A stretch of 64,000 bases of DNA, from assembly GCA_965287045.1 (NCBI GenBank), contig OZ336878.1, forward strand, positions 105,834,001 to 105,898,000. The letters run 5' to 3'. Both the position numbers and the translations under genes were made by a program. Of this stretch, positions 185-56,419 are shown piece after piece. The notes under the pieces were generated by a model, which saw only the letters and a list, made by a program, of their open reading frames with translations, was not told where the DNA came from and made no database searches. The stretch's first letter is position 1; each line of letters begins with the position of its first letter. Source of the DNA: Carcharhinus amblyrhynchos. Taxonomy: Eukaryota.

Positions 185-211
185 CTGACACCTTCCCAGC
201 AACAACAATTT
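185..211 (-). CDS. Micro-exon, 27 nt, (E)IVVAGKVS
   Basis: Acceptor is a T-run followed by aatcag|AAATTGTTGTTGCTGGGAAGGTGTCAG|gtctgt. Size and K at position 7 match the 27-nt class, but the donor is weak. Confidence 0.55.
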
Positions 212-559
212 CTGATTAAAAAAAAGGAAACAAGTAAAGTTTTACGATTCTGTAAAGAAGTGTAATTCTCTCAACTTTAACTGGAAAAAAAAGATGATCT
301 TACTCTATAGTTCCGATTTTGTTATTGCCCCGCCCACTGTTTATAATTTGAGAATGCACGTGGGTTCGGTGGTGAGAAGATGTTACATGCCTGGCTTCTC
401 TATCTCCAAATCGCACGGCAAGGCATCAGGCGTTGCAGACTCGGGGAAACGCGTATCCGCATTTTTTTTGTAATTGCGGAGGCCATCAAACTTCTAATTT
501 CGCGCAAAATGTCGTGGGTACATACAACTTGATAGCAAGAAGCTGCCGCTGCGCTTGCA

Positions 560-960
560 CATTTTCCGTATTCATTCTGGACCTCAGCATCGCTGGCTGG
601 ACAGAATTTATTGTCCATCCCTAGTTGCGTTTAGAGGGCAGTTGAGAGTCAACCATATACTATGGCTCTAGATTCACGTATAGACCAAATTAGAAAAGGA
701 CTTCTGATTTGTTTCCGTTACGTGCATTAGGGAAGCAGGTCCGTACAACATCAATGATATCATGGTCATCAGTAAAAATTAACTTCAGTTATATTTCATT
801 GAATTCAAAAACCACCAGCTGCTTCGGGACAACAGATCATTTTCTGTGTTTCTGGACAAATAGCCCAGCGATAATGCCACAAGGGTTTCGTCTTCCCTTT
901 AATCTGGAAAGGTTCGTGTAATGTTGTCCTGAGAGGGACCATGTTAACCACGGCTTCACA
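560..960 (-). mobile_element. tRNA-derived SINE, SacSINE1/DeuSINE-like (approximate ends)
   Basis: Shares the core gagggcagttgagagtcaacc with the copies at 1340 and 19975. Family name is from recall. Confidence 0.6.
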
Positions 961-1339
961 GTGCACCGTGACCATCACAGAATCTCCGAAACATGAGACA
1001 CACATTCAACTTCGCTGTAGGTTCTCAAATATGCCATGTCTCCCAGCCGTCTTCAACTACAACCTCCTGCCACACGTCTCAATTAATTGGCTAGGGCTTG
1101 GAAAGTTGGCTCCAATGCAGCATACTTGTTTCATGAGCTGCCTCACTGGGCTTGCGATAATCAACATAATTCAATTTGATGCCTAATCATTTGCACGAAC
1201 AGCAGAGTAATTTAACGTGATTTATGATTCGGATCATCTGTACATCTGCACAGAACGCTGTAAAGTCTTTTCTCTTTAAACAATACATTGGAGAACTATG
1301 TTTCCTATGAAAGTGCGGAGATTCCTATGTTCTTACATT

Positions 1340-1650
1340 ATGCTCATCCCTAGCTGAGCTTCGAGGTCAGTTGAGAGTCAACCAAATTGATATGATTATG
1401 GGGTCACATGTAGACTTGACCAAGTTCGGATAGCTGATTTTGTTCGCTAAGGGAAACGAGTGAACCAGACGGTTTTTTTCCGATGATCAATAATGGATTC
1501 CCGGTCATGGAAAGATGAGTTATTACTTTTTTTTTGTATTAAATTTAAATTCCACTACCTGCTGAGGCTGAATTTGAACTCGAATCGCCAGAACATTAAT
1601 TCAGTTTATCAAATAACAGTCCAGTGATTATATTAATAGGACATCACGTT
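1340..1650 (-). mobile_element. tRNA-derived SINE, same family as 560-960
   Basis: Core cagttgagagtcaacc...cacatgtagac. A B-box-like gagttcaaattc lies on the minus strand near 1570-1581. Confidence 0.6.
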
Positions 1651-3639: not shown

Positions 3640-4110
3640 CCTTTAGATGTTCTTACTTCCCCACATTCCAAACTACAGAGCATGAAAAAAACATTGATAC
3701 TTTTTTTATAATTAGACAATTTCCATCCTCCTGTCTCCCCAACAGTCATTTGTTTCGTTTTATTCTGCCCGTTTTCCATGTCTTGGAGCATGTTGCCTTT
3801 GAAAGTCACAATCCTTGTCCCTCTCGAGTACCGGCTTGAACCTAGCACCAACAACATTTTAGGTAAAGCTTTTGCATTCAAACGGATCCCAGCATACAAA
3901 AGAAAAGAGCTCATGTCGAATTACCTCCTTATCAGTCCCCTAAATCTGTACACTCATATTTCGGATCCCTCCAATAAGTAGCATCACTTCCCTCCTCTAT
4001 TCGGTCCAGGCGGCTTGTACAGCAGTATCGAGCCTACGCTCAACATTCTCTTCGGCAAGGAAGATTGTTCAAACTTCTCCATGCTTGACAGGTAAGAAAC
4101 GTTTTTCACG
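3640..4110 (-). mobile_element. Old degenerate CR1 LINE 3' fragment
   Basis: Resembles the CR1 ORF2 C-terminal and 3'UTR sequence seen in the younger copies; heavily decayed. Confidence 0.4.
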
Positions 4111-5951: not shown

Positions 5952-5978
5952 CTTTATCCTTTCTTCGTAACCGTTCCT
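5952..5978 (-). CDS. Micro-exon, 27 nt, (E)ERLRRKDK
   Basis: cttttatcttgttttcgcag|AGGAACGGTTACGAAGAAAGGATAAAG|gtaaca. 20/27 nt identical to exon 42610-42636. Confidence 0.9.
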
Positions 5979-6823: not shown

Positions 6824-6929
6824 TATTGTGACATACATCCGTTTTGGACGCAAACTCAGGTCAACCTTCTGTGTTTAATAACCCCACAAATACAATATAA
6901 CCGCTTCTCGCTCTCTCAAAGTAAAACAT

Positions 6930-8653: not shown

Positions 8654-11600
8654 TAGAACATAGAACACAACAGCACAAACAGGCCCTTCAGCCCACAAGT
8701 TGTGCTGATCACATCGATACCTACCAAGCCATAGAACTATCTGTAACTCCCAATCCCATTAAATCTCATATACTCATCCAGAAGTTTTTTTTAAAGACCC
8801 CAGCGACATCGCCTCTACCACCACCGATGGCAGCCGAGTCCACTCACTCACCACCCTCTGAGTGAAAAACTTTCCCCTAACATCTCCTCTGTATTTGCTT
8901 CCCAGCACCTTAAACCTGAGTCTTCTCGTAGCGACCATTTCAGCGCTGGGAAATAGCCTTCGAGAATCCACCCTATCTATTCTTCTCAACATTTTATCAA
9001 CCTTGCCTCTCAACCTTCATCTCTCCAGGGAGAAGAGACCTAGCTCCCTCACCCTGCCTTCATAAGACATGCCTCCCAATCCAGGCAACATCCTTGTAAA
9101 TCTCCTCTGCACCCTCTCAGTAGTTTCCACATTCTTCGTGCAGTGAGGCGACCTGAACTGAGAACAGTACTCCAAGTGGGGTCTGACAGGGGTCTTATAA
9201 AGTTGCAGCATTACCTCCCGCCTCCTAAACTCAATCCCTCGATTAATGAAGGCCAGTACACCATACACCTTCTTGACCACATCCTCCACCTGCGAGGCCG
9301 ATTTAAGAGTCCTACGGACTGGGACCCCAAGACCTTTCTGCTCCTCAACACTGCTAAAACTCCTACCCTTGATATTGTACTCCTTCATCCCATTGGCCCT
9401 GCCAAAATGGACCACTACACATATATCCGCGTTGAAGTCCATCTGACACTTCTCCGCTCAGTCTTGCATCCTATCCATGTCACGCTGCAACTTCTGACAT
9501 CCCTCCAGGCTATCCACAACACCACCAACCTTCGTATCGTCGGCGAACTTACTAACCCATCCCTCCACTTCCTCATCCAGGTCATTTATGAAAATGACAA
9601 ACAGCAAGGGTCCTAGAACAGATCCCTAGGGCACTCCACTGGTGACCGACCTCCATGCAGAAAAAGACCCATCCACATCCGCTCTCTGCCTTCTGCAGGC
9701 AAGCCAGTTCTGGATCCACAATGCCAAAGACCCTTGGATACGATACCCACTCACCTTCTCAAGAAATCTTGCATGGGGGACCTTATCAAACGCCTTGCTG
9801 AAGTCCATGCAAACCACATCCACCACTCTTCCTTTGTCAATGTGTTCAGTCACATATTCAAAGAAGTCAGCTAGGCTCGTAAGGCACGACCTGCCCTTGA
9901 CAAAGCCGTCCTGACTATTTCTGATCATTCTAAACTTCTCTAAATGCTCATAAATCTCTTCCCTCAGAATCCTCTCCATCAACTTCCCAACAACTGAGGT
10001 CAGACTCACCAGTCTGTAATTTCCCAGGCTATCCCTGATCCCTTTCTTGAAAATAGGAACCACATCCGCAATCCTCCAATCCTCTGGAGCCTCTCCCGCC
10101 TCCATCGATGATGCAAAGATCATCACCAGGGGTTCTGCAATCACTTCCCTTACCTCCCACAGTAACCTGGGTTACAACCCATCCAGTCCCGGCAACTTAT
10201 CTATCTTGATAGAATTTAAAAGTTCCAACGCATCGTCTTTCTTAACGTCCACATACTCAATCTTTTCAGTCTGCCACAAACCTGTAGTACTACCTCCCAG
10301 ATCATTTTCCATCGTGAATACCGAGGCAAAGTACTCATGAAGCACCTCAGCCATTTCTTCCAGTTCCACACAGCCTTTTTCCCCTTCACCTTTTATAGGT
10401 CCTATCTCTTAATTCTCATCCTTTTACTCTTCACATATTTGTGGAAAGCCTTGGTATTCTCCTTAATCTTACCCAACAAGGCCTTCTCATGAGCCCTTCT
10501 GGCTCTCCTAATTTCCTTTTTAAGCTCCTTTCTACAAGCCTGACACTCTTCTAGATCCTTAACATCTGCTAGCTCTCTGAACCTTTTGTATGCCTTTCTT
10601 TCCTTTCTGACTAGGTTCATCACAACCTTCGTGCACCATGGTTCCTGCGATCTAGCAAAACCTCCTTGTCTCATTGGGACGTTGTCGTGCAGAGCTCCAG
10701 TCAAACATTCTTGAAAATCCGCCACCACCCTTCAGTACTTTTCCCCAAGAACACCTCCTTCCAGTTTAGTCGTCCAATTATCTGCCTCATGTCAGCATAT
10801 TTCCCCTTACTCTAGATAAACACCTTCTTAGCCTGCCTGATCCGATCTCGTTCCAATGCTATCGTAAAGGAGATAGAATTAAGATCTCCATCCCCAAGAT
10901 GCTCTCTCACCGAGGGATTCGACACCTGCCCTGGTTCATCAGCCAGCACCAGGTGAAGTAAAGCCTCTCCTCTCGTAGGATTATCCAAGTGCTGTGTCAG
11001 GAAACCCTCCTGAACACACCTAACAAGCTCTTCCCCATCCAAACGCCTTACCCTAGGGATATTCGAGTCGATGTCTGGGAAATTAAAGTCTCCCATCACG
11101 GCAACTCTGTTATGACTACATTTCTCTAGGATCTGTTTCCCTATCTGCACCTCAACTTCGCTGTCATTATTGGGCGGCCTATAGAAAACACCCAGCAAAG
11201 TTATCGACCCTTTGCTGTTCCTAACTTCCACCCACAGAGACTCTGTAGACAGTCCGCCCACGGCATCCACCTTCTCTACAGCCATGGCACTGTCCCTGAT
11301 CAACAGTGCCACTCCACCAACTCTTTTGCCTCCCTCCCTGTCCTTCCTGAAACATCTAAATCACGGCACTTGAAGTACCCAGTCCTGTCCCTGAGACATC
11401 CAAGTCTCTGTAATGGCCACCACATCACATTCCCAAGCAGCAATCCACGCCCCAAGCTCATCTATTCTATTCACTACACTCCTGGCGTTAAAATAGACAC
11501 ACCTCAGACCCTCGGTCTGGGCGCTTCCCTTCTCCATCATCCGTCTAACCTCCTTCTCATACTGTCTACAATCCGTCTCTACTTGGGAGCTACCCTCCTC

Positions 11601-12750
11601 GCTCTCAGTCACTTCATCTCTATTCCTTCCCCTCAACCTTTCTAGTTTAAAATCCCCCCAGTAGCCCTACCCAATCTTCCCGCCAAGATATTGGCCCTCC
11701 TTGGATCCAAGTGCCACCCGTTTTTACTGTACAGGTCACACCTGCCACTAAAGAGGACCCAATGATCCAGGAACCGGAATCCCTGCCCCCTGCTCCAGTC
11801 CCTCAGCGACGCATTCACCCTCCACATCATTCCGTTCCTGCTCTCACTCTCCCGCGGCGCAGGCAGCAATCATGAGATTACTAACTTCACGTTCCTCTTT
11901 CTCAGCTGTCTACCTAATTCTCTATAATCCCTTTTCATGACCCCCTCCTTCCTCCTGCCTATGACAGCGGTACCTATTTGTACCACAACCTCAGGCTCCT
12001 CACCCTCCACTTTCAGATGTCTGGGACGCATCCAGAGACATCCCGGATCCCAGCTCCAGGGAGGCAAACCACCATCTGCGACTCCCGTCTGCGTCCGCAA
12101 AAACACCTGTCTGACCCCCTCACTATGGAGTCCCCTATTAACACTGCCTTAATGCTTTTTTTTTCTTACTTTTTTGAAGTACTGGATTGGGCTTAGCTCC
12201 AGAGGCCTGGCCACCGCTGCCTCCCCCAGGTGAGCTGTTCCCCACCCCCCCCAGCAGTACTCAGACAGGAGTACTTATTTTGAAGGGGGGCATCCAACGG
12301 CGTGCTCTTCATCACATGAGCTTTCCCCTTCCTAACAGTTACCCACTTGCCTTCCTCCCGTTGCCGCACTGTGACCACTTGCAGGCAGCTCCTGTCAATT
12401 GTCTCCTCATTCTCTCTAATGAGACGAAGGTCCTTGAGCTGCAGTTCCAGTTCCTTAACCCGGTCCCTTAGGGACTGCAGCTCCACATACCGAGCACAGA
12501 TATGGACGTCTGGGAGACCAGGATCCTCCAGGACCTCCCACATACTGCATTGGCAATAACATACTGGCCTCGCACTCACCGTTCCAATTTATAGTAAGGG
12601 GAAATAAGAACTACCCAAGCCGCTTTGCAAACTCCTTCCAGTTTCCGGTATAAAATTTAAAAAAATAGAAAAGTTAGCTTTAAAAATCACTCTAGCATAC
12701 CCTCAAGCTCTCCTTTCACAAATCGCTGCCTCTCTTCTGTGCTCCCAAGG
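8654..12750 (-). mobile_element. Near full-length CR1 LINE with frameshifts and stops (ORF1 plus ORF2 APE-RT)
   Basis: ORF1: CCQCSMWE zinc finger, coiled coil, esterase segment (11642-12579). ORF2: YFNARSV..VAITETW and MGDFNFPDI endonuclease motifs; RT motifs GNYRLVSLTSVVGK, DFSKAFDKVPH, SVTSGVP and RPHLEYC. The 3' tail reads tagaacatagaaca on + at ~8654. Confidence 0.95.
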
Positions 12751-13141: not shown

Positions 13142-13177
13142 CAACATCCAGTTTGAAAGCTTCTATTTTGGCTATTT
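13142..13177 (-). CDS. Micro-exon, 36 nt, (E)IAKIEAFKLDV
   Basis: cctttatgttgattcag|AAATAGCCAAAATAGAAGCTTTCAAACTGGATGTTG|gtaaga. 22/36 nt identical to exon 35986-36021. Confidence 0.9.
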
Positions 13178-39003: not shown

Positions 39004-39136
39004 ATATATAGGTACATCATAACGTGTCAAATGACGTTAATTTAGTTTTTTTTTAATGTAACTTCAGGCTTTTCTCTGTGTTTGTGCGCACATAATTGCT
39101 GTAACATCCAGTAATGTCAGTATGTATATAGTTCAC

Positions 39137-39163
39137 CTGATTTGGTTTCACGTATCTTTGCTT
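39137..39163 (-). CDS. Micro-exon, 27 nt, (E)AKIRETKS
   Basis: ttttgtatttccacgttacag|AAGCAAAGATACGTGAAACCAAATCAG|gtgaac. Confidence 0.85.
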
Positions 39164-40401
39164 CTGTAACGTGGAAATACAAAATAGTGTTTGATTCTTG
39201 GTATAGAGAATCCCAGGTTTTCTGTTTGATAATATCATGCTTAATAAATGAGTGAAATTCATGAATAATTTACTTGGGACTGCAACAATTCTTAAGAAGA
39301 AACTCGGAGCAAAATAAAGAAACTTAATTTTCATTCCATGCTCTTGCTTCTCGCGTCGATTTTACTGGACTTATGCTCAAGCAGTTACCGTGTATTTATT
39401 TAAAGAAATACGCTTTAATTTGTGCACACGCATTGCTTAAGAATCCCGAACATATTCGCTTACAAATCTGTGTTTTACGTTTTCTCTACCCGTAGGAAAA
39501 TTTAAATTCCTGCTTAACAAGATCTGCTTGTTCGTTCAGCTTTCACCAGAGGTTTCATGCTTAATATTCAAGTGTGTACGCCATATCACTCCAGCAAAAA
39601 GCTACGGTACTTGTGAATATGAAAACATTAAGATTGGTTGGTACAAATCTGTAATATTTCGAAATTGCCAACTATTTAAGATAACAATATTATTGTTGGC
39701 ATTTTGGCTCCATGCAAAATTACATTTATAATTTAGACGATAGTCAGTGTTACAATATAAATGGACCTGAGGCGTGGTTACGATGTATCTTGTTGTCATT
39801 TGCGCTTCAGTTGGCCGCAGCATTTGGTGATGTATCACATTTATGCACTCATCCCTTTCCCAGTTCAGTAGCACATCCCCACTAATACAAGAAAGCCATA
39901 ACCTTCGGTAACCAAAAGGGAAAAAAAAGCTATAAAATTTCAGAAGGTCTGACAGCATCAAAAAGGAGAGACGTTTCCATTTCAGATGGTCTTTCAAATA
40001 TGGTGGATCGTCACCATAGGCGTTTCATTAGAATAATGCTAGAGGCAGGGAAGGTGTAAGTGATTTCCCAGACTGCATCTTAATCGCCCGCTTCCTGAAA
40101 AGTCAGTTACAAGTTGCAAGTACCAGAATGTTAAGCTTTCCGAAATGAATTAAAGTTCTCAGGTCTGAAATAGGTCTGAAATGTGCCATGCCCTGAGATC
40201 TCTTTGGTTTATTCTGTTTTGCTGAATGGCGTTATTAAAAAATAAAGTTATCTGTTGCTACTTATTAGTAGACCAAATCCATGGGTACGATGAGGTGGAA
40301 TACCAAAACAGCCTACAGTAATGTGTCTCCAAATAGTACGCTGTTTGGTTTGACGTATTCGACATACCAGATTTTCAGTAATTTATCAGTATAATGCTCA
40401 C

Positions 40402-40419
40402 CATCGTCCAGCAGGTGTT
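40402..40419 (-). CDS. Micro-exon, 18 nt, (Q)HLLDD
   Basis: caatttcgttatag|AACACCTGCTGGACGATG|gtgagc. Confidence 0.72.
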
Positions 40420-40593
40420 CTATAACGAAATTGATATTAATTCTGTTAAGTACTACAAAATTCGTAACAATCATATTAAGGGAATTTACAAGAAAATTCA
40501 AGGCAAACAGTGTAAGGCAAAAATAAATTGAGACCTAATTATCAGATGAAGAACATTGACCTTTATGTTATTATAATTGGTAAGTACGCTTAC

Positions 40594-40608
40594 GTTTCTC
40601 CTTCTCAG
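40594..40608 (-). CDS. Micro-exon, 15 nt, (A)EKEK
   Basis: tttttgctccttttcgcag|CTGAGAAGGAGAAAC|gtaagc. Confidence 0.78.
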
Positions 40609-40789
40609 CTGCGAAAAGGAGCAAAAAGACCGCATTTTAATAATTAAATGCGAGTCAGCGACATATACGTGTCATGAAAGTAAGACAAAGCAGATATGAA
40701 GCGATGAGAAAGTATAGGGACCCTATAACCAATCGTAAGCCTTTATATATCCTTACTTGAAGTACAAGGATGCTTTGAAACTTTCAAAT

Positions 40790-41122
40790 GGCAGGCACGG
40801 TGGTGCAATGGTTCGCATTGCCGGATCATATCGCCAAGGACTGATGTTTAAATCCGGCCTGGGGGATTGCCTGCGAGGAATTTTAACACAGTACTTTGGG
40901 TGAGTTTCATCCGTTTGCTCCGTTTTCCTCCCTCAGTCCAAATGTGTGAAGGTTAGGTAGGTTGGCCTTAATAAATTACCCCTTGAAGGCCCAAAATGTA
41001 TTTTTTTTTGGAGAGGGATGAATTAGTGGGGCAAATACGTCTGGAGATGCTGTGTCGACAATCATTGCAAGCTCGATGGGCCGAATGGCCTCCTTCAGCG
41101 CTGTAGCAATTACTGGATTCTA
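40790..41122 (+). mobile_element. V-SINE (HE1-like)
   Basis: ggcacggtggtgcaatggtt head, V-domain cctcagtccaaatgtgtgaaggttagg, tail gatgggccgaatggcctcctt. Confidence 0.8.
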
Positions 41123-41176
41123 AGGGAACATAGAAATTGGCAGGTCATGCCAGTTATGTTTTTGTTTTTCTCTCAC

Positions 41177-41212
41177 CTTGTTTCCTCAGAGCATCTTTCA
41201 GATCGTCCACTT
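41177..41212 (-). CDS. Micro-exon, 36 nt, (E)VDDLKDALRKQ
   Basis: catgtatatattccag|AAGTGGACGATCTGAAAGATGCTCTGAGGAAACAAG|gtgaga. Confidence 0.88.
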
Positions 41213-41439
41213 CTGGAATATATACATGTATAAACACACGTTTACTTGCCATTTGTAATTCAAACGGGCCATTATTCTACAGCGTCACTTCCAATGACGA
41301 TTTCTCTGCTTTCTTGTTATGCCATTTGTTTCATCAAGTGCCACCTCTGCCTTGTGATGATTTATTTTCCTAGTATCTCTTGGAACTATGTTTTGTGGAA
41401 CCAGTCAGTGAGCATGCTACTCTGTATTTTGTATTGTGC

Positions 41440-42597
41440 ATTGTGGAGAGTTTACATCATTACATCCACGTTAAGGAGTCGTGATCATAGTCTGGTAGGA
41501 TTCAAAAATCAGTTTTGGGTGCGAGCAAGTTTAGTCCCATACTAACGTTCCGGAATTAAACAAATGAAATTGCAAAAGTATGAGGGTAGATTTGGCTCGA
41601 ATAGGGTGGGCAAGAAGACTAAAATTTGGACAGCAGAAAAGCAATGGCAGACGTTTAAGGAGATACTCAATTACTTACAGCTAAAAAAAATGACGAAAAA
41701 AGGACGTTAGAAAAAAAAAACAACGTTAAACAATAAGTCCGAGGGTCATATAAAAACAAACAAAAAAAAGTGTGTATCATATTAGGAAGGCAGCGGATTC
41801 TGGAAGATTGGCAAACTTTCAAACATAAACAACGGCATAGTAAAAATAAGTAACAAGAAGAGTTAAGGTAAATTATGAAAAACAAAGCGCAAACATCAAT
41901 ATGATTGCAAATTCTCCTATCTATTCTTAAAAGGGATGAGTGACGCTAAGGCGAATGATAGACCCTTCGAAGATGAAAGCGGGAGTCCATAGTGTGGAGC
42001 GCTGAAATTGCAGAGATACTAAATCAATACTTTGCCTCACTTTTCAGTGAAGGAAACCAGTGCCATTCATGTAGGATCGGGCAAGTAGGAGGCAATAGAA
42101 ATGGTCGAAGTTAGAACAATCGCATATATGGGGAAATGGTACTCAGCAAACTATTTGCATTGAGAGTTGATAACTATACCCCATTACATTCACCGCAATG
42201 CCAGCGCCCCCACCCCTCCCCACTGCCTGACCACATAAATCCGAGGATATTAAAGGAATAGCGGTGTCGATAATGGATCTATTGGTTCTAAAATTCCGAA
42301 ATTTCCTAGGCACCGGAAAGGTTCCAGTGGATTTGTAAAATTCTAATCTACCGCCCTTATCCAAAAAAAGAGGGAGAAGAAATATGGGAAATTTCAGACC
42401 AATTAGTTTAAGGTCTGCTGTTGAGAAACTATTTGATTCAATTATCAACGACTCAAAATCAGGTAATTTGAAATGTCAAAATGCTATCCATCATGTTCAG
42501 CGTTGTTTTATGAAGGACAAATCATGTTTGACTAATTTGGTCGGGTTCTTCGAAGATGTAACACGCAAAATGGACAATGCGAATCTTGTTGATGAAT
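41440..42597 (+). mobile_element. Degenerate CR1 ORF2 internal fragment
   Basis: GNFRPISLRSAVEKL and KSCLTNLVGFFEDVT. Ends about 12 nt from a micro-exon donor. Confidence 0.8.
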
Positions 42598-42609
42598 AAT
42601 TAAATTCAC

Positions 42610-42636
42610 CTCTATCCTTTCTACGTAGATTGTCCT
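42610..42636 (-). CDS. Micro-exon, 27 nt, (E)DNLRRKDR
   Basis: caatttctttttacag|AGGACAATCTACGTAGAAAGGATAGAG|gtgaat. Confidence 0.9.
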
Positions 42637-43509
42637 CTGTAAAAAGAAATTGTACTTTCTCACTCAAGTCACTTTTCAGGATTCATTTCGGTGACATCTA
42701 CTGCAAATCCTGACTGGTAGTTGTGGACGAGCTCAATCGCTCTTAAATCAACTTCATAATTCATCAGATCCAAATTACGTTGCTATCAATGTCAATATTC
42801 AAATTTAACTATGAAATATTCGGTCCTTTGATTTTGTCTGTCCAGAATGTCGTCAAAACTTTGCACTACGCGAGGTATAAACATCGAAGCTCGATAATAT
42901 TGTGCATCTTCTTCATAACTTTGTAGAATCAATTTCAAAATATGTTGCATCTGAATAATCGGTAAAGTTTGAACTTTTGAAAATCGACCGGAACATCATT
43001 CAATTTTGTTAAATCTGAATCGCACATCCAATATATCTGGGGAGAGGCCTCGGATAATAACCCATTCCCCTATATTTCTTGTCAGGAAGATGAAATTCCA
43101 CAGGATGGAAAATTATTAATTTGGTTACAGTCAGACTGAATGCATATCAAGTAGATATTTACTGCCAACAAAATATTTAATGTTCAATTCCTAAGGACGG
43201 AAATCTGTCCTTGCAGTTTTCTGACCGTAAACCAATGTGACCGTGAGGTATTAAATACTCCTCCAAAACAAATAACCTATGGTGTAAATAATTTAGTACA
43301 CTTGTTTTCTGATGATTATTCTGATTTTGTCGGAGAATCAATGTCGAACTATGTACATTCTTCTTTTAAGAAATGACTTGCACTTATGCATCAAGTGATG
43401 AGAACTGTGTCAAAACACATTATGCATTTACGTAAAACCTGGTTCAATTATGCCTGGTTGCTTGTATCGTTAGGTCTTGCTGACAGTACTTCGAAAAGAT
43501 TTCCCTCAC

Positions 43510-43545
43510 CAACATGTTGTATGTCTTCCTTCATTTTTTCTAGTT
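43510..43545 (-). CDS. Micro-exon, 36 nt, (E)LEKMKEDIQHV
   Basis: ttttgactttattttgcag|AACTAGAAAAAATGAAGGAAGACATACAACATGTTG|gtgagg. Confidence 0.9.
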
Positions 43546-44619
43546 CTGCAAAATAAAGTCAAAACGAACAAAATTACTCGTTATACCAGGTTCAATATGT
43601 AAACCTAAACATTCCTCAGCGTTCTGTGTGACACATAATAAACATGTCCATTTTCCTTCTGGCTTGAAGAACGACTAAAAGGGGCCTCAGGATTTGAATT
43701 TGCTTTTCCCAATATTATCTGTTCTCCTCCATTTTACTGTTCATCAGAGGATTGGCAGGACAGGGAGCCAATATCACATTTCAGACGTCCGTCAGCTTTG
43801 TACTCAACATTGTGAGTGCACAGAAGAGGATGTGTTCAGACAGGCAGTGAGTGAGAATTATTCAGGCCTCTTTTCAAGAAAGAAGCGAAATATACAATTT
43901 GAAAGTAGAACCCATGAAGTTTTGAGGACTATCAGCATCAAAATAATTTTATTAAAAATGAACCCGTAATCTCTTTGCAGGTACACTTGTTGAATTAAAA
44001 TTAGGATGATTCTGACAATCAAGGAAGAATTTAAGAGAACGCGATGACGAATGTTTTTATTTCCTAGTGTGGATTAGAAAAAAACCACGTACCGACATCA
44101 AAGTATAATCACTGAGCAATCTACTGGGAATTGAAAAGACCACTCCTCGCAAAACGACACGGAATGAATTGAAACTCACAGCCATACATAGCGGATGAAA
44201 TGAAGAGTGTAAATGCGTGCAAGGGGGAAAAGGCTAATATCTTACAGAAATGTGGGCGGATGATTGCAACCTTAGATTTTGATTACAAATTGTGAGCTTG
44301 TTTTGTTCGATCATGATCAATAAAGTGGCAATAGTTTGCCAAGTCCTCTGTTCTGGTAATGGAAATCCTATTTCACCTCATGAAATCTTATGTAACACAT
44401 GCAGTCTCTGGAGAAGCAGTTGAATTTTATTTTGTGAAGCTTCTGAATCTGCGATATTTGATTGCTGGCACATTAAAAAGCATGAGTATTGTGACGTTAA
44501 ATTAGCAAATCAAACCGACAATTAATCAGTTACATCAGATGTATTCACTCCATCCAACATCCATAGTTGAAAATTAATTTCAAAGAAATAAGAGCCAGAG
44601 GAGGTGACTGTGAATACAT

Positions 44620-46710
44620 TCCGATCTTCACGGATTTCGGGGCCCAGCGTGTTGTTGTAAAATATGCAAGGAAAGTATTGCAGCTGTACCAGTAGCTAGC
44701 ACTTCCGATAGTTCCCAAAATCCACAAGGAAAGACTGTCCTGGTTGGCCCATATTTATTCTTATCTTGACTCCATCCTTTCTCCTCTGGTGGATTGTCCC
44801 CCCTCCTACATCCGGGACTCCTCTGATGCCCTGTCTCATAATGGCAGCTTCCAGGTTGCATGCCCTCACTGCCTCCTATTTATCATGGATGTACAATCTC
44901 CCAATGACTCCATCCCAACGGGAATGGACTGAGAGCTCTTCGCTTCTTTCTTGAAAAGAAGCATGAATAATTTCCATTGACTGCTTGGCTGAACACATCC
45001 ATCTCTCAACAATGTCTCGTTTAACTCATCTAGCTCCCTTCAAATCAAAGGTGTCGCAATTAGTATCCACATGGGTCCTAGCTGTGCCTGTCTTTTTCAT
45101 GGGGAAGTGGAACATTCTTTGTTCCAGGCCTACCTTAATCCCGTCCCACAACTCATTTCTTGGTACATCGATGACTATATTTGTGTTGATTCGTGGTCTT
45201 GTCAGGACCTGGAAAAAATGATAATTTTTGCTTCCACTCTACTCCGCCATCGCTTTCACCTGGTCAATGTTAGGCACTTCCCTTCCCTTTTTGTGGGCTT
45301 TCTGCCTCCATTTCTGGGAATAAACTATCAACCAATACCTATTAAAAACCGACTGACACCTAATGTAATTTGGATTACAGCTCGTCGCACCCTACATCTT
45401 ATAGGACTCCAGCACTTTTCCTCATTTCATTCACCTCCCTCACAATTGTTCTGTTGACGCCATTTTCCAAAGTTGTGCTTCGAACATGTACTCCTATTTT
45501 CTCAATCATAGTTTTCTACCTACAATTTTGACAAGTCTCTCAACAGCGTGCGTTCCATCTTCCAAGCTACGATGCTCACTCCCTCCCTTCTCTCCGTGAA
45601 CGAGGATAGATACCTCTTTTTCTCACATTTCCACACCACCAGCCTTTACATGCAAAGCATAATGCTCTGCCATTTCCGCTAACTCCAGCGTGATGCCACC
45701 ACCAAACACATCTTTGCTTCACTACCTCTATCATCATTCTGCAGAGACCATTCCCTCCGGTATAACCTATTCCACTCCTCCACTGCACCTAACACTACTT
45801 CATCACCCATAATGCCTTCCCATGCAATCGCAGAATGTGTCACACCTGTCTTTTACTTCTATCAAGCTTTCCATCCATGATCCAAAACACTAATTCCAAG
45901 TTAAAGCAGTGTTTCACTTGCGCCTCTTTCAATTTGATGTACTGCATTTGCTGCTCCGAGTGTGGTTTCCTCCATAGCGGAGAGACCAAATGTAGACTGA
46001 GTGATCGCATTACTAAACACATTCGGCCTGGTGCAATCAGGACCCTGACCGTATTGTTGCTTGTCATTTTAACACGCAGTTCTGCTTCCATGCATACATG
46101 TCTGCCCTTTCACTGTTGTAATTTGCTAGTGAAGCTTAACGTAAACTGCAGAAACAACACCTCCTCTTGTGGTTAGGCATGTTACAAACTTCCCGACTTA
46201 ACATCGAACTCAGCAACTTCAGATGATTAGCTCTACGCCACATCAACGCTTTGTTTTCATTTTATTCGTTCTTTTTCGCTGTTCTCTACCATTTATTTAT
46301 TGTTTTTTCTTTATTTCGCTTCTCCCCAAACCTTTCCCCTATTTTATCCACCTTTCATTAATTTTTCTTCCCCTTCGCTTACCCTTTCTCCCTTTTTCTC
46401 AATTTAACTTTCTCCCACCCATCTCCCCCATCACCTCACATCTTCATCTGCCACAGCTTATCCTCTGGTTTCAGTTTATCTGCCGTTTGGCCATTCACAC
46501 CTTTTATTCTCCCTATGGACTGCCATTAATAGCTGTTTCCCTTGTGTTTTATGAATATGGCTCATCTTTCCTTCCCGCATCCAACAGTATAATCATTTCC
46601 CACTTTCTATGTCTTTCAGCTTGGACAGAGATTCCAAACGCCAGCTCTTTTCTCTCGTTACAGATGCTGTCAGACTTATTAAGATCTCCAGCATTTTCCC
46701 GTTTGGTCGC
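44620..46710 (+). mobile_element. Penelope-like retroelement (RT plus GIY-YIG endonuclease), decayed
   Basis: RT motifs SYIRDSSDAL, MGPSCACLF and WYIDD. GIY-YIG-like NLMYCICCSECGFLHSGETKCRLSDRITKH. Pyrimidine-rich 3' region. Confidence 0.85.
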
Positions 46711-46849
46711 CAGATCATTTGAGATTTCGTTTTTGGAGCGTGAATTTCACGAATTTTACTATCCAGGATTTGAAGGGACAGGATGCGCAATAGGATGCGG
46801 ACCCAAAGGAAACAATTTATTTCACTCAGAATTCTAATGTCTCACAATA

Positions 46850-47760
46850 ATTAGCGCCCAATTTGTCATGTTCTTGTCAAGTCAAACAGGCATCTATTGG
46901 ATGCATTTCAGATAAGGCTTGACATAAGCACGTCGAACTCCGATACGGCTGTCCACGCATGTTAGTCATTGCCAAGAAACTTGACAGAACATGCCGCAAA
47001 TGGACTGAAGGCAATTTTCAATAATGTTCGATTTGTTTTCCATATGTGAACTCTTATTGCAACACTGTTGTATGCTCAAAGCAGAAGACGAGCATCACTG
47101 AGATCTGGTAAGAGATAACAAGGCAAGATCTGAACGAGTGAAGCAGCCAGGGAATGTGGCAATTCGAAGTGATGCATGCATTGAAAGTGAAAACATAGAC
47201 TGATTGCAACCAAACATAACGCAAAGGAATATGATTGCAACGCCCAAGGCAAGTTCTTCTTTTCATTGCTTCACAGAATGTCCCCATAGTTGGCGAGACC
47301 AACCTTAGGTTACTCAGCCAAAATGTCATGGGGAAAGTGCCGGCGAGCAGCTGTCTTGAACTGCTGCACTCTGAGTGTTGTAGGTGCAAACAAGGTGTTG
47401 TTACAAAGATTTGCAGTGCCGATTGACAACAATGAGATTGCAGTGGATCTTTAAGTCACAGTGCCTTGCAGCTTGGATGAAGATTAGCCCTAAAATAAGT
47501 TTCAAAGATTTTCTGTGTTGCTTAGATCAAAATTTGGTTCGTACTGTTGAAGATGCATTTAAGAGTTACAGCATATCTTCACTAAGGCAACACTCCGACT
47601 ATTGACCATAGGAGGACGGATTGTATGCAGATAATATTTAAAATGGTGGTTGAAGGCTCAGACAAGCAGAATTCTTTATCACATTTGGTGCTGATGTTCT
47701 AGCCATTGTTGGCATCCCATTAATTTGGACAATAACAACACTCCTCGCTTTCCAAGTTTG
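46850..47760 (-). mobile_element. Old LINE ORF2 fragment
   Basis: Patchy RT-like decayed sequence; no intact frame. Confidence 0.3.
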
Positions 47761-48090
47761 TGTCTTGTTGCTACAGGCTGAATATTAGAAAGCAAGGACG
47801 GAGTCCCTCGCTGCAAAATTTCCAGTTCTTGTTTAATGCGCATTTGTTATATGATTGCCCATTTTGCTCAGCCATAAATATAACCAATTGTGCATTATTT
47901 AACTATAAGACCTAAAAGAAAATGTAATATGCAGCAAGTTATGTCTTTCTATTTCTGCCAACGTCAGTTTGCTGTTTTCAACGTAAATGGTATTGGTAAA
48001 TCGTGAAATCTACATGACAGAACATGCATTCATCGAACCGATCTGCAGTTAATAATTGAAATACTGGAAAACGTATCTCGGTAAAATTAC

Positions 48091-48117
48091 CTGTATCCTT
48101 TATAAGAAGTTGTCTCA
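48091..48117 (-). CDS. Micro-exon, 27 nt, (M/V)RQLLIKDT
   Basis: ttttcttgtcttctcgaacag|TGAGACAACTTCTTATAAAGGATACAG|gtaatt. Confidence 0.87.
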
Positions 48118-49624
48118 CTGTTCGAGAAGACAAGAAAATAATTATTAAACCGCAACATATACATCAGACTTTTAGAAACAAAACACGTTGATCTAATCAA
48201 TGCGAAGGAACATTTGGCTTCCACTCATATGCTTAGCTTTCAGATAAACACTTGAGACTGGTATTTTAAGTGTAATTTTCGGGCATATTGGTTGAGATGC
48301 CATTAAATAAAATGAATGTTTGTAAATAGAAAAAAAAAGTATCTCTTAATGTCGAAGATCTTCGAAATGCATTAATATTTCCATTCTATTACCGCATTTA
48401 CAATAGCATTCAAACATTGTTCAATTCAAATAGTGGGTCAATGCATCAGTCTCCACATCGCTTTATAATCGTATTCATAATTACAAGTGTGAAATATCAA
48501 GCTCAAGTATTAGCTACCAGCATGGTAAAATAGCAACGATATTTTCTTTCTCTGTCCCGAGCTGCGGACATGATATCTTCGTCATCAATAGGACCGCCTC
48601 CGTGAGTATCCATACTACCGGGTATTCGTCCTTTGACTCACAGTGTATGGTATGAAAACCCTTACTCATGCTTCAGTTGCCTCTAGTTTTGTCCTTCAAA
48701 CATGGTCTGACTAGAAATTTGGGCTACCGCAAAAGAAAAGGTGCTTACCACAATTTGATTCACAACAGATACTTTTAACAGTGCAATCAGGTATTCACTG
48801 GTCGACATTGAGTATTACCAAGATGCTTATTTGTCCCTCTGCCGCCAGTTTCAACAGCCTTTCGAATTCACATATATTCGGAACGCCGTTCAGCCTCGTA
48901 CGAGTTTCAAACTTTATAGATCAGCAGTTCTACTCAATTCCTAACTAAATTCCCTTCCGGAGATTTTCACACGTGTTTTCTAAGTCCAGTTTCGCTGAAT
49001 TTAGGGACCCTTCTCTCACATACTCTTTACTAATTTTTAGGCCAGTTAATTTCTTTTCCAAAAATTTAATTTCCTGTACCAATGCCGGGTTTATTAAACA
49101 TTCTAACTTGAAGTGCATTGCACTATTTTAAATTAGAAATGTGAATTAGCAATGCAAGTTCTCATTGTATTTGTGGACTTTCATTTATCTGCTGATCGTA
49201 TTATTTCAAATTGAATGTTCATTTTAGTGCAAGAAAGCTTGTGTGGTTGTTCCTCGAAAGAATGATAATACTAGCCTTGGAAAATGTAACAACAACACAT
49301 TCAACTACAGAAATGAACGAATACTTTTACCCAAGAAAGCACAGCAAAATGTATCAGCAGGAAATGATGCAGTGAGCAATATTAGAGAACAGGCAGAATA
49401 AAGTGCATAATGTTAGTGGAGACCAGTAAAATGTACAGTAACAATATTCATAATCGATAGAGGGGTGTGAGGGAACGGCGAGCTTTAAGGAAATATGCCA
49501 AGTTGCAGATACATAAAGAAACGCTCGGAAAATAATAGTGTTTTGCCGGATAAATACGTTAGAATTCATCAGATTACAGCAGAATAAAATGAAAGGCAGA
49601 GGTGAGGATACACACCAAGGTAAA

Positions 49625-52700: not shown

Positions 52701-54852
52701 AAGCTCATTTTAATGTCGAATCAAAGAAAATATGGCATGTACGCAACACATTCAAACAACCAATTGGGAAGACATTTCAAATAATAGCGCAGCTTGGATC
52801 CAGTAACAAATAAAATGGCAGCAAAGAAAATTCCCAGGTTAAAAGACTGTGCAGTCGGAACAAAGTAGGGAATTTATCCTGATCTGCAGCGCACAATAAT
52901 ATCCGTACCTATAATAAGCTCAAAAGACACAATATTATCCAGAAAACTAGAATGCACAGGGAGGAAAAGGTCAACTTAAATTATGATGGAAACAGAACTT
53001 GGAGTCGTAAAACAAGGAACCTGCTTTACATTTGTATAGGATTATATTTTCACCTCAACTGTAGCATTTGCGTGACTTCTGGGCACCAACGTTTAACATC
53101 GGTGCCATGGAAAGAATGCAGAAAAGTTCTACAGGAAAATCCAGGATCCAGGAATCAACATTTTTCAATTGTGTGCTTTAGTTATATAAGTCATGTCTGT
53201 TTTAGTGGGAAAAGAGATGTTTGGGATCTAAATTGCTGGAGACATTCGAAATTAACACGCTCTTTGAAGAGTGGAGAAACAGGAGTTGTCCCCATCCATG
53301 AAATGATAAAAAACACAGCAGACTGTGATTTTGAGCAAACTGCGGTTGGTGAGGGAGGTGGGACGGTGATAGAAGCAACATGTCAAACACGTGGTAATCA
53401 TCGTGGATAATTGATATAGAGTGAGATGGAGTCATGCTAAGTTGAGGAATTCTCGAGTGACTTTATTTTCTAAAAATAAGAAGTGTACAGGGTAAAAGAG
53501 GGAAGTGCAGGCAAGCAGTAAGTGCATTGATATTTCAGATCTCGAGCCCTACGGCATAAGCCACAGACATCGTTCTGTTTAACGAGCAGTCTTTAATTCC
53601 CTGCGTTTTTTTTTGCAACACGTCCTATTCATTTTGAGATGGGAACTGAGTTAGAAATTTTGCGTTCCTGAGTCAAATGTTTTAATGGGTTTTGGTTGTA
53701 AGGTTGAAAGAAACTTTATGCCTACCTCGAAGAAGAACGGGATAGTAACAAATCATTTGCATTTCGTATCAGACAATGGTTACAGCACAGATGGATGCAA
53801 CTGATTTCCCTTGTTCATGTTGGCTCTCGGCAACAAAGTTTCAGCTAGTTCCACTCCAATGAAGTCATGCAAAATCCACTTTCATCGATCGGATCATTCA
53901 ATGGAGGTTTCTCCCCCCCACCCCATGTTTAACTATAACATTGAAGAGGAACATGTACAAACGGACAGCCACAATTACTATCAAAAACGAATAAATTGAG
54001 ACAGGATGTGAATTATTTATGGATGGGAGACAAAAGGAGGTGAATCAACGTGCATGGTTTTCAGATGGATGTTTGCAGGCCATTTGGTTTGTCCCAAAAT
54101 TAAAGCAGAATGCTGTAAGCAGACTTGGAGTCTCCATATTGTAACATTAAATACGTATTCGCTACAAGCATTCATTCGAAATTCCCTAAAATATCATTAC
54201 GTTCCCAAATTGGAGGCAGTGTGCAATATCACCGAATTCACGGTTCCTGAATGCAAAAAAAATTCGGATCTAATATTTTGAAGTAATGTTGTTTTTTGAG
54301 GCATATTATTGAGTTCGGTTGAAGTAGAACCTAAGCAATATTGTTGTTGATGTCTGTTGTAAAAAAAAGTCAGTTTTTTTTATCTAAATAACTCCAATCT
54401 ATGCTGTTCAGTTGCTGACATAGCACTGCAACACAACATACCTCACCTCCACGGCAGAGTCAAGTTACTTCTCGTAATATATATCGAGGCGGACCTGACA
54501 AAAACTCAATTATCTTGTGTTCTACTTTATTCAAAGTAAATAATACACCGTGGTGGTTCTGCGCGGAAAAACGGCAAGGATACTGCAACTTCATTTCTGA
54601 TACATCCATAAAATAAAGTCATACTAACGAGGGTAATCAGTAGTTTTCAAATAAATTAGAAAATGTATATATCAACCTGAGGCATGGGTAGAAACTGATC
54701 TTATAAGAATTTACAACTTTTGTAACGTTAGCTTAGAAATACCAGTAAAGGATCTTAGGCGACAAAAAAACCCGAATAAATTCATATATCCTGTTGTCGT
54801 ACTTCTAATGACCCAGAAAAAGACCCAGACTCAGTACAACAGTGCTTGATTT

Positions 54853-54884
54853 TATTATTATTATTATTATTATTTATTATTATT
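54853..54884. repeat. (TTA)n microsatellite
   Basis: Imperfect run of ttattatta... Confidence 0.9.
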
Positions 54885-56392
54885 TCTGCAAAGTTCCCCG
54901 ATTCCTTAACGGCCCAAATCATTTGTCGATTGCAAGTGGGGCGTAGTTTGTCGAGAAAACGAACGTGGGAAATAAAATTAAACTATGTTGAAATATAGGT
55001 TAGTTGGCTTGACATTATTCGTCAAAATAATGCTCGAGTACTTTCTTTGGGAAGCGCAATATTTTTGTACGTCAGCCAGGCAGATTGATGCGATTTTACG
55101 GGTATTTTGCAAATTCAGTACGGTTTCTTTTTTTTTGAGAATGTAACAAGTATTACAGGTTGTCGACGCCTGTAGAGATGATATGTTTTGATTCAAAAGT
55201 AAGTTATTTTGTAAGGATCAATGTTTGATGTGCATTATGCATTCGCATGAAGTCGAGGACAATGTTTTAACATCAACTGAAGACATGGAACAGACAGAAT
55301 GTAGGCCATGCGGAGAAAAATTATATTTTGAAATTTGTCAGACTGCGCCTCGAGGGGATTTTATTTAGATCTCAGAGCTCAGATATTTACATTCACCAAC
55401 AACAACTTAAATTACAAACCTAGAGCAACGTATTTTATTTTGGATCACAGGAAAAGTTTTTACAAGTTCAGCCAGTTCGGAGAATCCAAACGCAGAATAA
55501 GATAGAAACGGTGTAGTTGAGCGGGTAAGATGTGACACAGCAAAAGAGAGAGGTTCGTAACAGAAGTACAATTATACAATGTAAGCCGACAGCATGGAGG
55601 ATGTAAGTGCTGACTTTCAGACAGACCTGACTGCACACATGCGCGCCAAGAGTAAAGCGAGTCTTCAGCGACAGCTAACGATTAGGAAGGTAAACTGAAC
55701 GCTTGTTTTCACTGAAATTATACATGAAACATGAAATATTGCAAATGTGATGTAATTGCAGATGCTTTTGTCCAGTCCACACATAGCGAAGTAAAATAAA
55801 TTTGTTTTGCAGATTTTCGATGGGGTCATGGGATAAAAGGTTCATCATATTTTGGAGGATGAAAAGTTTCTTATGTTTGGAAGGGAAATAAGGAATGCTT
55901 TTACTTAAACTTTGAAAATTGCCAAAGATCTTTTTTTCAGAATCGAGGAAACTTTTGTTTTCAACGAATTTTGGAATTAACTAAACAACGCCACGTGCCG
56001 ATGGTCCGTTCAGATTAGTTAGAGTAGCGCAGAGTCTATTTTGTTTCGTTTAGGGATTTTTCCATAATTTCTGACCCCCTTCCCCCTCTTCCGTATTGCA
56101 GTTTTATCGTTCAGTATGCACAAGGTTTGGAATATTTCTCAATGCACAGAAGTCAGGAAATCATTGGACGCGGGAAGTGATTATGAATGTGAAAATCAGG
56201 CAGACGCTAAGTCAACTTCGAAATACTATAGGAACAGAGTTCCAGTTTCATATTCTTGTTCACCCTTTTGTAACGTGTACAGAAAATCGAGGAATATTCT
56301 TTTTTTTTCTTTTGGTGCAGATATTCCTCAATTTCATACCACAGATCGTATAATTTTATATAAATAATTCCCAAATAGTCGCGATTGCTTAC

Positions 56393-56419
56393 TGGTATCT
56401 TGAAGTGGTTTTTTGAATT
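56393..56419 (-). CDS. Micro-exon, 27 nt, (x)FKKPLQDT
   Basis: ttttgattatttaattcag|AATTCAAAAAACCACTTCAAGATACCA|gtaagc. Confidence 0.68.

Follow-up and report, generated by a model that had tools for sequence, protein, structure and literature searches.

Micro-exons on the minus strand of the window

The window, the whole 64-kb stretch of shark DNA that we analysed (positions 1–64000), lies in the interior of an array of very small minus-strand exons, both ends of which fall outside it. A scan for AG..GT-bounded segments, with splice scores from a simple hand-set matrix, identified 17 such segments on the minus strand: ten of 27 nt, five of 36 nt, one of 15 nt and one of 18 nt. The original prediction had described 17 symmetric minus-strand exons in these same size classes; it lacked most of their coordinates, which were recovered here by the scan. 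Read along the minus strand, the series begins with a 27-nt phase-1 exon (56393–56419), which aligns to the exon preceding the 'MRQLL' repeat, and a 27-nt exon of the 'MRQLL' class itself (48091–48117). The scan and the joined frame support the exons at 43510–43545 (36 nt), 42610–42636 (27 nt), 41177–41212 (36 nt), 40594–40608 (15 nt), 39137–39163 (27 nt), 19232–19258 (27 nt), 17628–17663 (36 nt), 13142–13177 (36 nt) and 5952–5978 (27 nt). The 36-nt exon at 35986–36021 corresponds in class and boundaries to a 12-residue block skipped in the ray isoform XP_069775423.1, the internal residues of the 27-nt exon at 33627–33653 are identical (8/8) to those of S. canicula XP_038671246.1, and the 27-nt exon at 33109–33135 would be 15 nt long if an inner donor were used. 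The weakest of the 17 are 185–211 (27 nt, non-heptad and linker-like), which has strong splice sites and no homologous match, and 2659–2685 (27 nt) and 40402–40419 (18 nt), which have weak acceptors. The last of these is probably the 18-nt exon of the original prediction, as judged from its match to a homologous 'H..DD' segment of database proteins; 27570–27587 was dropped in its favour.

Together the segments amount to 483 nt, or 0.75% of the window, consistent with the predicted coding density of below 1%. Joined by genomic order they give 161 codons once 40402–40419 is counted, as predicted, with no stop in the phase-1 frame as compared with 12 and 16 in the other two. The open reading frame listing contained retroelement fragments and noise only.

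Length, strand and frame of the segments

Segments of 27 and 36 nt exceed chance. At a score of ≥7 and with no coding filter, the minus strand of the window held six 27-nt and four 36-nt segments against 0.14 per other length, while the plus strand held none of either. In a 787-kb scan (−300 to +487 kb relative to the window) at a score of ≥8, again with no coding filter, the minus strand gave 22 segments of 27 nt and 25 of 36 nt, the other lengths from 12 to 60 nt having a mean of 1.8 and a maximum of 8; the plus strand gave two and none, respectively. These 47 high-scoring segments contained no in-frame stop in phase 1 (0/47), as compared with 34 and 25 in the other frames. Over the same 787 kb the candidates numbered 132 on the array strand and 9 on the opposite strand, 100 of the 132 being 27 or 36 nt long and four being 21 nt.

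A hydrophobic residue occupies position 4 in 77% of 27-nt exons (n=48), and positions 2, 5 and 9 in 95, 77 and 73% of 36-nt exons (n=44), so that a 27+36 pair makes up three heptads in register. By these per-position counts, the heptad spacing originally described was correct. The Fourier peak of the whole 160-residue join, at 3.55, is weak because runs of 27+27 shift the heptad register.

Alternatively, the 17 segments might belong to a partial duplicate that is decaying and no longer expressed, or be pseudo-exons arising by chance in introns rich in repeats. Recent duplicate exons diverge by 22%, as compared with 21% in their introns, and their changes by codon position are 70/59/90 (the pairs are not independent), which suggests that residue-level purifying selection is weak and is what decay would produce; the window also lacks some exons that the repeat unit would lead one to expect, and no splice junction was observed at this locus. 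However, none of the 47 segments carries an in-frame stop or a change in length over 787 kb, splice sites are intact, the opposite-strand control gave 9 against 132, and collinear shark and ray proteins are on record, making this explanation very improbable. In the sequencing runs covering 28300–48250, two that are DNA-like span introns as well as exons, with coverage of about 98% and 95%, and two presumed to be RNA covered repeats, no exon-linking joint being among the 15 of 980 joints listed; no RNA run on record contains 34000–43800 of the window. Taken together, strand, length and frame indicate that the window exons are almost certainly coding.

The array beyond the window

The gene had been placed at 185–56419, but the array extends far past both edges and is 15–40 times longer than 56 kb. 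It extends from about +486 kb (C9:106.32 Mb) at least as far as −406 kb (105.43 Mb), and sampling traced it on to C9:103,955,183–103,955,692, about −1.88 Mb from the window, where a B30.2 terminal exon lies. A second B30.2 (PRY-SPRY) terminal exon, at +549.7 kb, is the end of an upstream paralog; samples show the array continuing across the 2.4 Mb that these two exons bound. Of this 2.43-Mb interval, 41% (1.0 Mb) was read, giving 160 candidates, and six 10-kb samples represent the remainder. The search of +486 to +549 kb gave no convincing first coding exon, nor any hydrophobic first-exon candidate.

Tandem duplication has enlarged the array on two scales, namely by units of 10–20 kb (between +95 and +166 kb) and by modules measuring a few hundred kilobases, of which there are about five, a number that rests on one exon class and the samples. 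The modules start with N-terminus-like exon classes, and 'MRQLL' clusters lie at about 106.02, 105.88, 105.51–105.55, 105.17–105.19, 104.43–104.50 and 104.09–104.12 Mb. On C9, all 15 'MRQLL'-class matches at 104.09–106.42 Mb fall on the minus strand, as do all 18 matches at 103.4–106.5 Mb to a pattern also used on C16. A 36-nt acceptor pattern trained on the examined region had 11 of its 12 C9 matches inside that region and thus says little about 104.0–105.5 Mb. The array is sparse from −73 to −150 kb and empty at 105.400–105.428 Mb; the module at 105.47–105.43 Mb breaks off at a point some 40 residues before the B30.2 domain of XP_038671249.1, and the following 28 kb contain no candidates. 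A separate array at 103.49 Mb has no clade B30.2 exon downstream.

The array is located in the MHC-linked region of TRIM and butyrophilin genes. The MHC class I matches, 82 in number, all lie on C9 at 89.6–101.1 Mb, placing the array 3–5 Mb from the class I cluster, and butyrophilin-type IgC matches occur at C9 98.80 and 102.66 Mb.

B30.2 terminal exons form a distinct clade

The two array-flanking exons match the SPRY profile PF00622 (E values of 1e-9 and 4e-12), and the PRY model PF13765 had no match in the family's B30.2 exons. The exon at C9:103.955 Mb has a phase-1 acceptor, as do the B30.2 terminal exons of neighbouring TRIM-type genes, and is preceded within 19 kb by six 27-nt candidates. 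Its best PDB sequence match was the BTN3A1 B30.2 domain (E value of 4e-14), and its predicted fold (pLDDT 64, first 40 residues unresolved) resembles the PRY-SPRY of TRIM21, TRIM7 and BTN, with a match to TRIM58 as well.

The B30.2 exons of the family group in a clade of their own; its eight members in this genome were consistently at the top of genome searches. In a quick tree of 53 rows, midpoint-drawn and with no bootstrap, the clade comprised 17 rows with an SH-aLRT of 99, apart from butyrophilins and shark TRIMs. When longer members of the clade were sought with a profile, TRIMs and butyrophilins made up most of the 120 of 377 matches listed, and two of those 120 belonged to the clade. 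Genome searches detected no clade B30.2 exon between 103.96 and 106.38 Mb, and no B30.2 remnant was present in the 1.0 of 2.43 Mb read; the nearest downstream clade exon is thus 1.88 Mb from the window, on the same strand and in the same phase. On C16, all 40 pattern matches listed at 60–66.5 Mb lie upstream, and on the same strand, of one of six clade B30.2 exons, and one micro-exon group spans 1.5 Mb before its B30.2 exon.

Homologous proteins on record

Proteins with the same repeat motifs and B30.2 clade were found, under automatic names, in two catsharks (S. canicula XP_038671249.1, XP_038671246.1 and XP_038672306-10; S. torazame XP_072329362.1), an electric ray (Narcine XP_069775384-90 and XP_069775418-28), the basking shark (Cetorhinus XP_078422387.1) and the epaulette shark (Hemiscyllium XP_060706632.1). 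The predicted micro-exon-built rod of cartilaginous fishes therefore has homologues in sharks and a ray. The models are automatic, partial and undescribed, the longest having 945 aa, and none spans the window's module or a comparable array; the suspicion that gene predictors miss the gene was right for most of it, partial NCBI models being the exception. The family loci adjoin on one chromosome in the catshark and likewise in the ray. Searches of open-licence PMC and bioRxiv turned up no account of the family and no paper citing six of the accessions, and the main text of the catshark genome paper does not mention SPRY, coiled or butyrophilin. The AlphaFold model of a 460-aa catshark paralog has helices followed by strands, at a mean pLDDT of 42 that is too low for use, and ESM Atlas matches were generic coiled coils only.

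The order of the window exons is collinear with XP_038671249.1 (score of 267, shuffled maximum of 212), XP_072329362.1 (257 and 196), XP_069775418.1 (228 and 216) and XP_038671246.1 (232 and 168), none of the 500 shuffles reaching the score in any case. These exons thus very probably belong to a chondrichthyan rod–B30.2 family. XP_038671249.1 (945 aa) joins a rod and a SPRY domain in one protein, the latter being 63% identical to the C9:103.955 Mb exon. Its true ortholog is the last module, 104.16–103.955 Mb, where residues 133, 257, 323, 621 and 633 appear in order, and it is consequently no proof by itself of a link between the window and B30.2.

Among the closest models, XP_072329362.1, the XP_069775418.1 group and XP_038671246.1 end without B30.2, one such model being a separate catshark locus. 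They would fit a separate B30.2-less paralogous gene in the window (about 0.55–0.9 Mb, 100–140 exons) with its own short terminal exon, which we consider unlikely, though a serious alternative; its product, with the same limited likelihood, would be a pure coiled-coil rod like zipper protein, structural or a dimer partner of B30.2-bearing paralogs. The N-terminus-like starts and 'MRQLL' clusters of the repeated modules, the array gaps and the 103.49 Mb array suit this reading as well. In contrast, each C16 match listed points to a B30.2 exon, with one group extending over 1.5 Mb, the DNA read revealed neither a terminal exon nor a change of strand, and all exons are phase 1. Moreover, the B30.2-less models end in non-rod sequence, as we read it, in the way that truncated or intron-retaining models would.

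Domains looked for in the array and family

No Ig, RING or B-box domain was found in the array DNA or in the family proteins examined, so membership of the butyrophilins, BG or the TRIMs fails. Profiles from the N-terminal halves of eight butyrophilins and nine TRIMs, and tblastn, gave no match in the 1,024 kb of C9 searched, the full 63 kb from the stop of the upstream paralog to the first micro-exon included; positive controls matched. IgC had no match on C9 above 102.7 Mb and none on C16. None of eight clade or rod proteins matched the butyrophilin and TRIM N-terminal profiles, and none of 12 family proteins exceeded a 19-residue hydropathy of 1.4, neither a signal peptide nor a transmembrane helix being found; the hydrophobic first 40 residues of two partial models appear to us to be intron-derived. 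Of the flanking exons originally suggested, B30.2 was found and IgV or transmembrane exons were not.

These results bear on a further explanation, in which the array would encode the cytoplasmic tail of a membrane protein of butyrophilin or BG type, or a TRIM coiled coil, whose N-terminal exons were missed. The array does sit among butyrophilin and TRIM genes by the MHC, the phase-1 B30.2 terminal exon is common to neighbouring TRIM-type exons, and small heptad exons encode BG and butyrophilin tails (PMC4046983). Nevertheless, the empty N-terminal, IgC and hydropathy searches and the separate position of the B30.2 clade render it highly unlikely.

Proposed gene and its significance

We favour, with some confidence, the reading that the window exons encode part of a member of a chondrichthyan B30.2 family, in which a long micro-exon rod precedes a single C-terminal B30.2 exon, an architecture that would have no RING, B-box, Ig or membrane anchor. 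We predict, by a narrower preference, that at least some transcripts splice them to the C9:103.955 Mb B30.2 exon. The window could belong either to a single 2.4-Mb gene ending in that exon or to one of several upstream rod modules that share it. Tentatively, C9:106.32–103.955 Mb may be one transcription unit of about 300–450 symmetric micro-exons, a figure that combines the 160 candidates of the 1.0 Mb read with an extrapolation from six 10-kb samples. Equally tentatively, it may be a 'variable rod, constant head' cluster, with some five rod modules splicing onto one common B30.2 exon.

All exons are in phase 1 at both boundaries, which means that duplicating or skipping an exon, or a block of exons, leaves the reading frame intact. 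Single-exon skipping is seen in the gene models of relatives, and isoforms among the database models differ by indels of 6, 8, 8, 9, 9, 11, 12 and 23 residues, two of which alter the junction residue, as a split codon would. The product is in all likelihood a coiled-coil dimer, and is probably cytosolic. Exon number would set the length and flexibility of the rod, and the dimer would present paired B30.2 domains as its binding end, acting as a non-catalytic spacer or adaptor in which a BG-tail-like rod is joined to a TRIM/butyrophilin-type recognition domain. The most likely setting would be innate immune or cytoskeleton-linked recognition, an immune role being plausible at slightly below an even chance.

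An eight-member B30.2 family (about 8 Mb, two chromosomes), mostly missed or mislabelled by annotation, occupies megabases by the shark MHC that look like gene desert. It represents a third use of B30.2 in the MHC region, besides TRIM and butyrophilin, and bears on the origin of the BG/butyrophilin/TRIM region in early jawed vertebrates. The array offers a natural system for splicing-controlled coiled-coil length, with exact junctions that are testable, and is possibly among the most exon-rich vertebrate genes. A single 2.4-Mb unit or a shared-head cluster, if true, would rival titin for number of exons and dystrophin for span, and would place B30.2 receptors on rods tunable by 9- or 12-residue steps, up to several hundred nanometres.

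Comparison with known systems

Schistosome micro-exon genes encode secreted proteins with a signal peptide and mostly symmetric micro-exons; symmetric micro-exons are present in the window, and a signal peptide was not found in the family. Neither a 63-nt exon class nor a transmembrane segment, as in CD23 and type II C-type lectin receptors, was seen in the array, and none of the results points to homology with CD23 or the schistosome genes. Among teleost signal-peptide PRY-SPRY proteins, Lates XP_018533038.1 ('interaptin') likewise has a very long coiled coil ending in PRY-SPRY, but it carries an N-terminal hydrophobic leader and belongs to another B30.2 clade. Tested as an ortholog, its window-order score was reached by 251 of 500 shuffles, with no collinearity, so the resemblance is one of parallel architecture and not orthology.

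The family resembles TRIM-B30.2 proteins (TRIM39-like, A33-like) in its coiled coil and PRY-SPRY, phase-1 terminal exon and neighbourhood, and lacking RING and B-box it would be no ligase. The NCBI names TRIM39-like and A33-like given to family models are automatic and misleading. Butyrophilins have a heptad region followed by B30.2, and are MHC-linked in cartilaginous fish too (PMC12841164, PMC8813856). Unlike in BTN and BTNL, no IgV, IgC or transmembrane segment was found in the shark family; its B30.2 clade is separate, and its rod runs to hundreds to thousands of residues as compared with a few heptads in butyrophilins.

According to the BG literature (PMC4046983, PMC8813856, PMC5043582), chicken BG genes lack B30.2 and have 13–36 exons of 21 (24) nt, which follow the exons for the signal peptide, IgV and transmembrane segment; zipper protein is a soluble form of the BG tail acting on actin–myosin. 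Chicken BG and the shark array both build a long coiled coil from many tiny exons, with variable exon number and skipping, in a tandem cluster by the MHC TRIM region. In contrast, the shark array uses 27 and 36 nt, has far more than 100 exons and no Ig or transmembrane segment found, and its family ends in B30.2. The butyrophilin/BG parallel originally drawn is apt because the family carries B30.2 and lies in the MHC-linked TRIM/butyrophilin region; B30.2, heptad exons and MHC linkage stand, while Ig and transmembrane segments and the 21-nt unit do not. The exon principle is common to the shark rod and the BG tail and the unit differs (27/36 nt versus 21 nt), making the array an independent and much larger version of the chicken exon-per-heptad design.

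Results

Micro-exons in the window

The window was scanned with a hand-set splice matrix (window coordinates are those of C9, contig OZ336878.1, minus 105,834,000; source assembly, 2.92 Gb). The scan gave 17 minus-strand segments, ten of 27, five of 36, one of 15 and one of 18 nt, all bounded by AG and GT and summing to 483 nt, the same tally as in the original prediction. Their join, predicted to be stop-free, had no stop in phase 1, whereas the two alternative frames contained 12 and 16, and none of 2000 shuffled orders created a phase-1 stop. Without a coding filter, high-scoring segments numbered six of 27 nt and four of 36 nt on the minus strand and none of either length on the plus strand, with 0.14 per other length. 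We conclude that the micro-exon observation is real. A variant at window 48103 in one DNA-like sequencing run falls inside exon 48091–48117 as a conservative Ile-to-Val change; Val at this place is also present in catshark repeats.

The array exons are symmetric and phase 1, with hydrophobic residues at position 4 in 27-nt exons and at 2, 5 and 9 in 36-nt exons, so that a 27+36 pair makes three heptads, bearing out the heptad spacing claimed originally.

Two LINE-type reverse-transcriptase/endonuclease-like frames seen by eye (window 9017–11645, minus; 37822–38910, plus), which we take to be CR1/L2, showed very high read depth in all four aligned sequencing runs. A local duplication (35308–35836 and 37204–37739; 1.9-kb offset, 85–91 % identical) flanks exon 35986–36021 on both sides, its upper copy ending near the LINE fragment, and a short interspersed repeat family (19157–19210, 23821–23863, 30477–30679 and 40921–41118) also gives false 15-nt exon-like matches on both strands. 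On the plus strand, splice scores were very strong for three segments (4010–4091, 16.2; 12180–12229, 14.5; 60484–60513, 15.1); no homologous match was noted for them, and they would be antisense non-coding exons or chance.

Extent of the array

The array had been predicted to span 56 kb; like exons run on beyond the window, from about +486 kb to −300 kb, the lower edge of an unbroken 864-kb stretch (−300 to +564 kb). Over 787 kb, a classifier based on splice score and composition found 132 minus-strand candidates (100 of 27 or 36 nt; 3918 nt in total; median spacing 3.9 kb) as compared with nine on the plus strand. This classifier was partly trained on the array exons themselves, and the 132, when joined, contain two stops, owing to exons that were wrongly called or overlooked. 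For lengths of 27 and 36 nt, the unbiased test, a splice score of at least 8 alone, gave 22 and 25 minus-strand segments respectively (1.8 expected per length), with a phase-1 stop in none of these 47, as compared with two segments on the plus strand. Further down, the classifier found 10 minus-strand candidates at 105.40–105.47 Mb (70 kb); six spaced 10-kb samples held 2, 2, 1, 2, 0 and 5 candidates, and 20 kb at 103.954 Mb held six, with none on the plus strand throughout.

The pattern for one class of 27-nt exon, 'MRQLL', matched at 28 places in the genome, 15 of them on the C9 minus strand at 104.09–106.42 Mb (control, 2), in clusters that appear to mark about five repeated modules plus a neighbouring rod gene, the upstream paralog. 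Growth was by tandem duplication (blocks 63–92 % identical, +95 to +166 kb), and duplicates diverge by 22 % in exons and 21 % in introns; residues drift freely, with exon length, frame and core positions kept. By eye, introns contain LTR-retroelement/endogenous-retrovirus-like fragments at about +358.5 to +362.8 kb, +120.7 kb and −147 to −144 kb, with zinc-knuckle, polymerase-like and envelope-like pieces, and a DNA-transposase-like fragment lies on C9 near +263.4 kb.

B30.2 exons at array ends

On the minus strand, the open frame found at +549.7 kb (C9:106.384 Mb) is a phase-1 terminal exon scoring as SPRY; preceded by micro-exons, it closes the upstream paralog. Genome searches with this exon, the next such exon and a distant relative (150 candidates scored each) all placed the same eight exons on top, at 106.384 and 103.955 Mb on C9 and at 60.45, 61.08, 63.07, 63.15, 63.74 and 66.44 Mb on another chromosome, C16. 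All eight were open (27–58 % identity) and, in a quick tree of 53 rows, joined nine database rows in a clade of 17 (SH-aLRT 99) separate from TRIMs, butyrophilins and the coiled-coil PRY-SPRY proteins of teleosts. The 103.955 Mb exon matched the BTN3A1 and TRIM21 PRY-SPRY by sequence and by predicted fold.

C16:60.4–66.5 Mb forms a second cluster, with micro-exon matches before each of its six B30.2 exons, on the strand of that exon, and spans of about 0.3–1.5 Mb. The micro-exon pattern had 112 matches genome-wide (control, 58); among the 100 listed, all 40 at C16 60–66.5 Mb preceded one of these six exons on the same strand, changing strand together with it. The 'MRQLL' class was absent from this cluster in the genome-wide search. 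Isolated micro-exon matches at C29:24.93 Mb, C20:24.60 and 24.85 Mb and unplaced contigs (C62, C71, C99 and others) may be further micro-exons or chance; those on unplaced contigs are one repeated sequence.

Inspection of the flanks, as originally proposed, yielded the clade B30.2 exons at 106.384 and 103.955 Mb. Profiles and tblastn with butyrophilin (8) and TRIM (9) N-terminal halves gave no match in 1,024 kb, which takes in all DNA from the upstream stop to the first micro-exon; butyrophilin-type IgC was found neither on C9 above 102.7 Mb nor on C16 (35 matches, 87 candidates scored), and the search upstream of the first micro-exon did not identify a first coding exon.

Downstream of the window the nearest clade B30.2 exon, with 150 candidates scored per search, is that at 103.955 Mb, 1.88 Mb off, and no B30.2 remnant was found in 998 kb searched of the 2428-kb interval. 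Three close database models end without B30.2, a module ends at 105.43 Mb before 28 kb without candidates, and three minus-strand micro-exons at C9:103.485–103.495 Mb, below the 103.955 Mb exon, have no clade B30.2 found downstream; a separate gene lacking B30.2, to which the window exons would belong, is therefore a real rival, if a rather unlikely one.

Relatives in databases

Querying with the 103.955 Mb exon retrieved a S. canicula protein of 945 aa, XP_038671249.1, which combines a rod with a SPRY domain 63 % identical to the query, and automatically named models from S. torazame, Narcine, Cetorhinus and Hemiscyllium were further relatives. The source-genome ortholog of XP_038671249.1 is the last module (104.16–103.955 Mb), which makes the window a paralogous module. 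The joined peptide, whose database search had been suggested, was collinear with chondrichthyan relatives: in genomic order the 17 exons aligned to four of them better than all 500 exon-shuffled orders, exon borders coinciding with repeat borders (57/125 and 67/135 aligned residues identical to two S. canicula proteins). For two other proteins, 5 and 13 of 500 shuffles reached the genomic-order score, and the genomic order had no such advantage for the upstream paralog of catshark or for two proteins of teleost type (410, 251 and 101 of 500). The suggestion of an undescribed gene holds in that the open-licence papers searched contained no description of the family, but automatically named database models exist.

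These models are presumably supported by RNA reads. Internal blocks distinguishing their isoforms measure 6, 8, 8, 9, 9, 11, 12 and 23 residues. The one of 12 residues is of the class of window exon 35986–36021; when it is skipped, the residue at the junction changes, which fits a split codon. Exon skipping and rod–B30.2 joining are seen only in relatives' gene models. The S. canicula model orthologous to C16:63.07 has an N-terminal part that looks LINE-like by eye, which suggests that genes of this family are mis-annotated by ab initio prediction.

Discussion

The family is a variant of the B30.2 coiled-coil theme, and it does not belong to the butyrophilins, BG or TRIMs. Its product would be cytosolic and form coiled-coil dimers that carry B30.2 domains in pairs and lack ligase activity, with a reach that depends on the number of exons. 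At the coiled-coil rise of ~0.15 nm per residue, a single uninterrupted rod made of the 1300 residues found over 787 kb would measure close to 190 nm. By analogy with TRIM/butyrophilin B30.2 domains and the BG tail, the product may act in recognition or as a spacer, either in immunity or at the cytoskeleton.

All 82 MHC class I matches were on C9 (89.6–101.1 Mb) and TRIM-type B30.2 exons are dense at C9 96–103.7 and 108.6–112.5 Mb, placing the array in an MHC-adjacent TRIM/butyrophilin region. Chicken BG genes likewise occupy such a region (PMC4046983, PMC8813856). Teleost PRY-SPRY proteins with automatic names, which combine a hydrophobic leader, a coiled coil of 1100–2400 residues and PRY-SPRY, form a separate clade and represent a design parallel to that of the chondrichthyan family.
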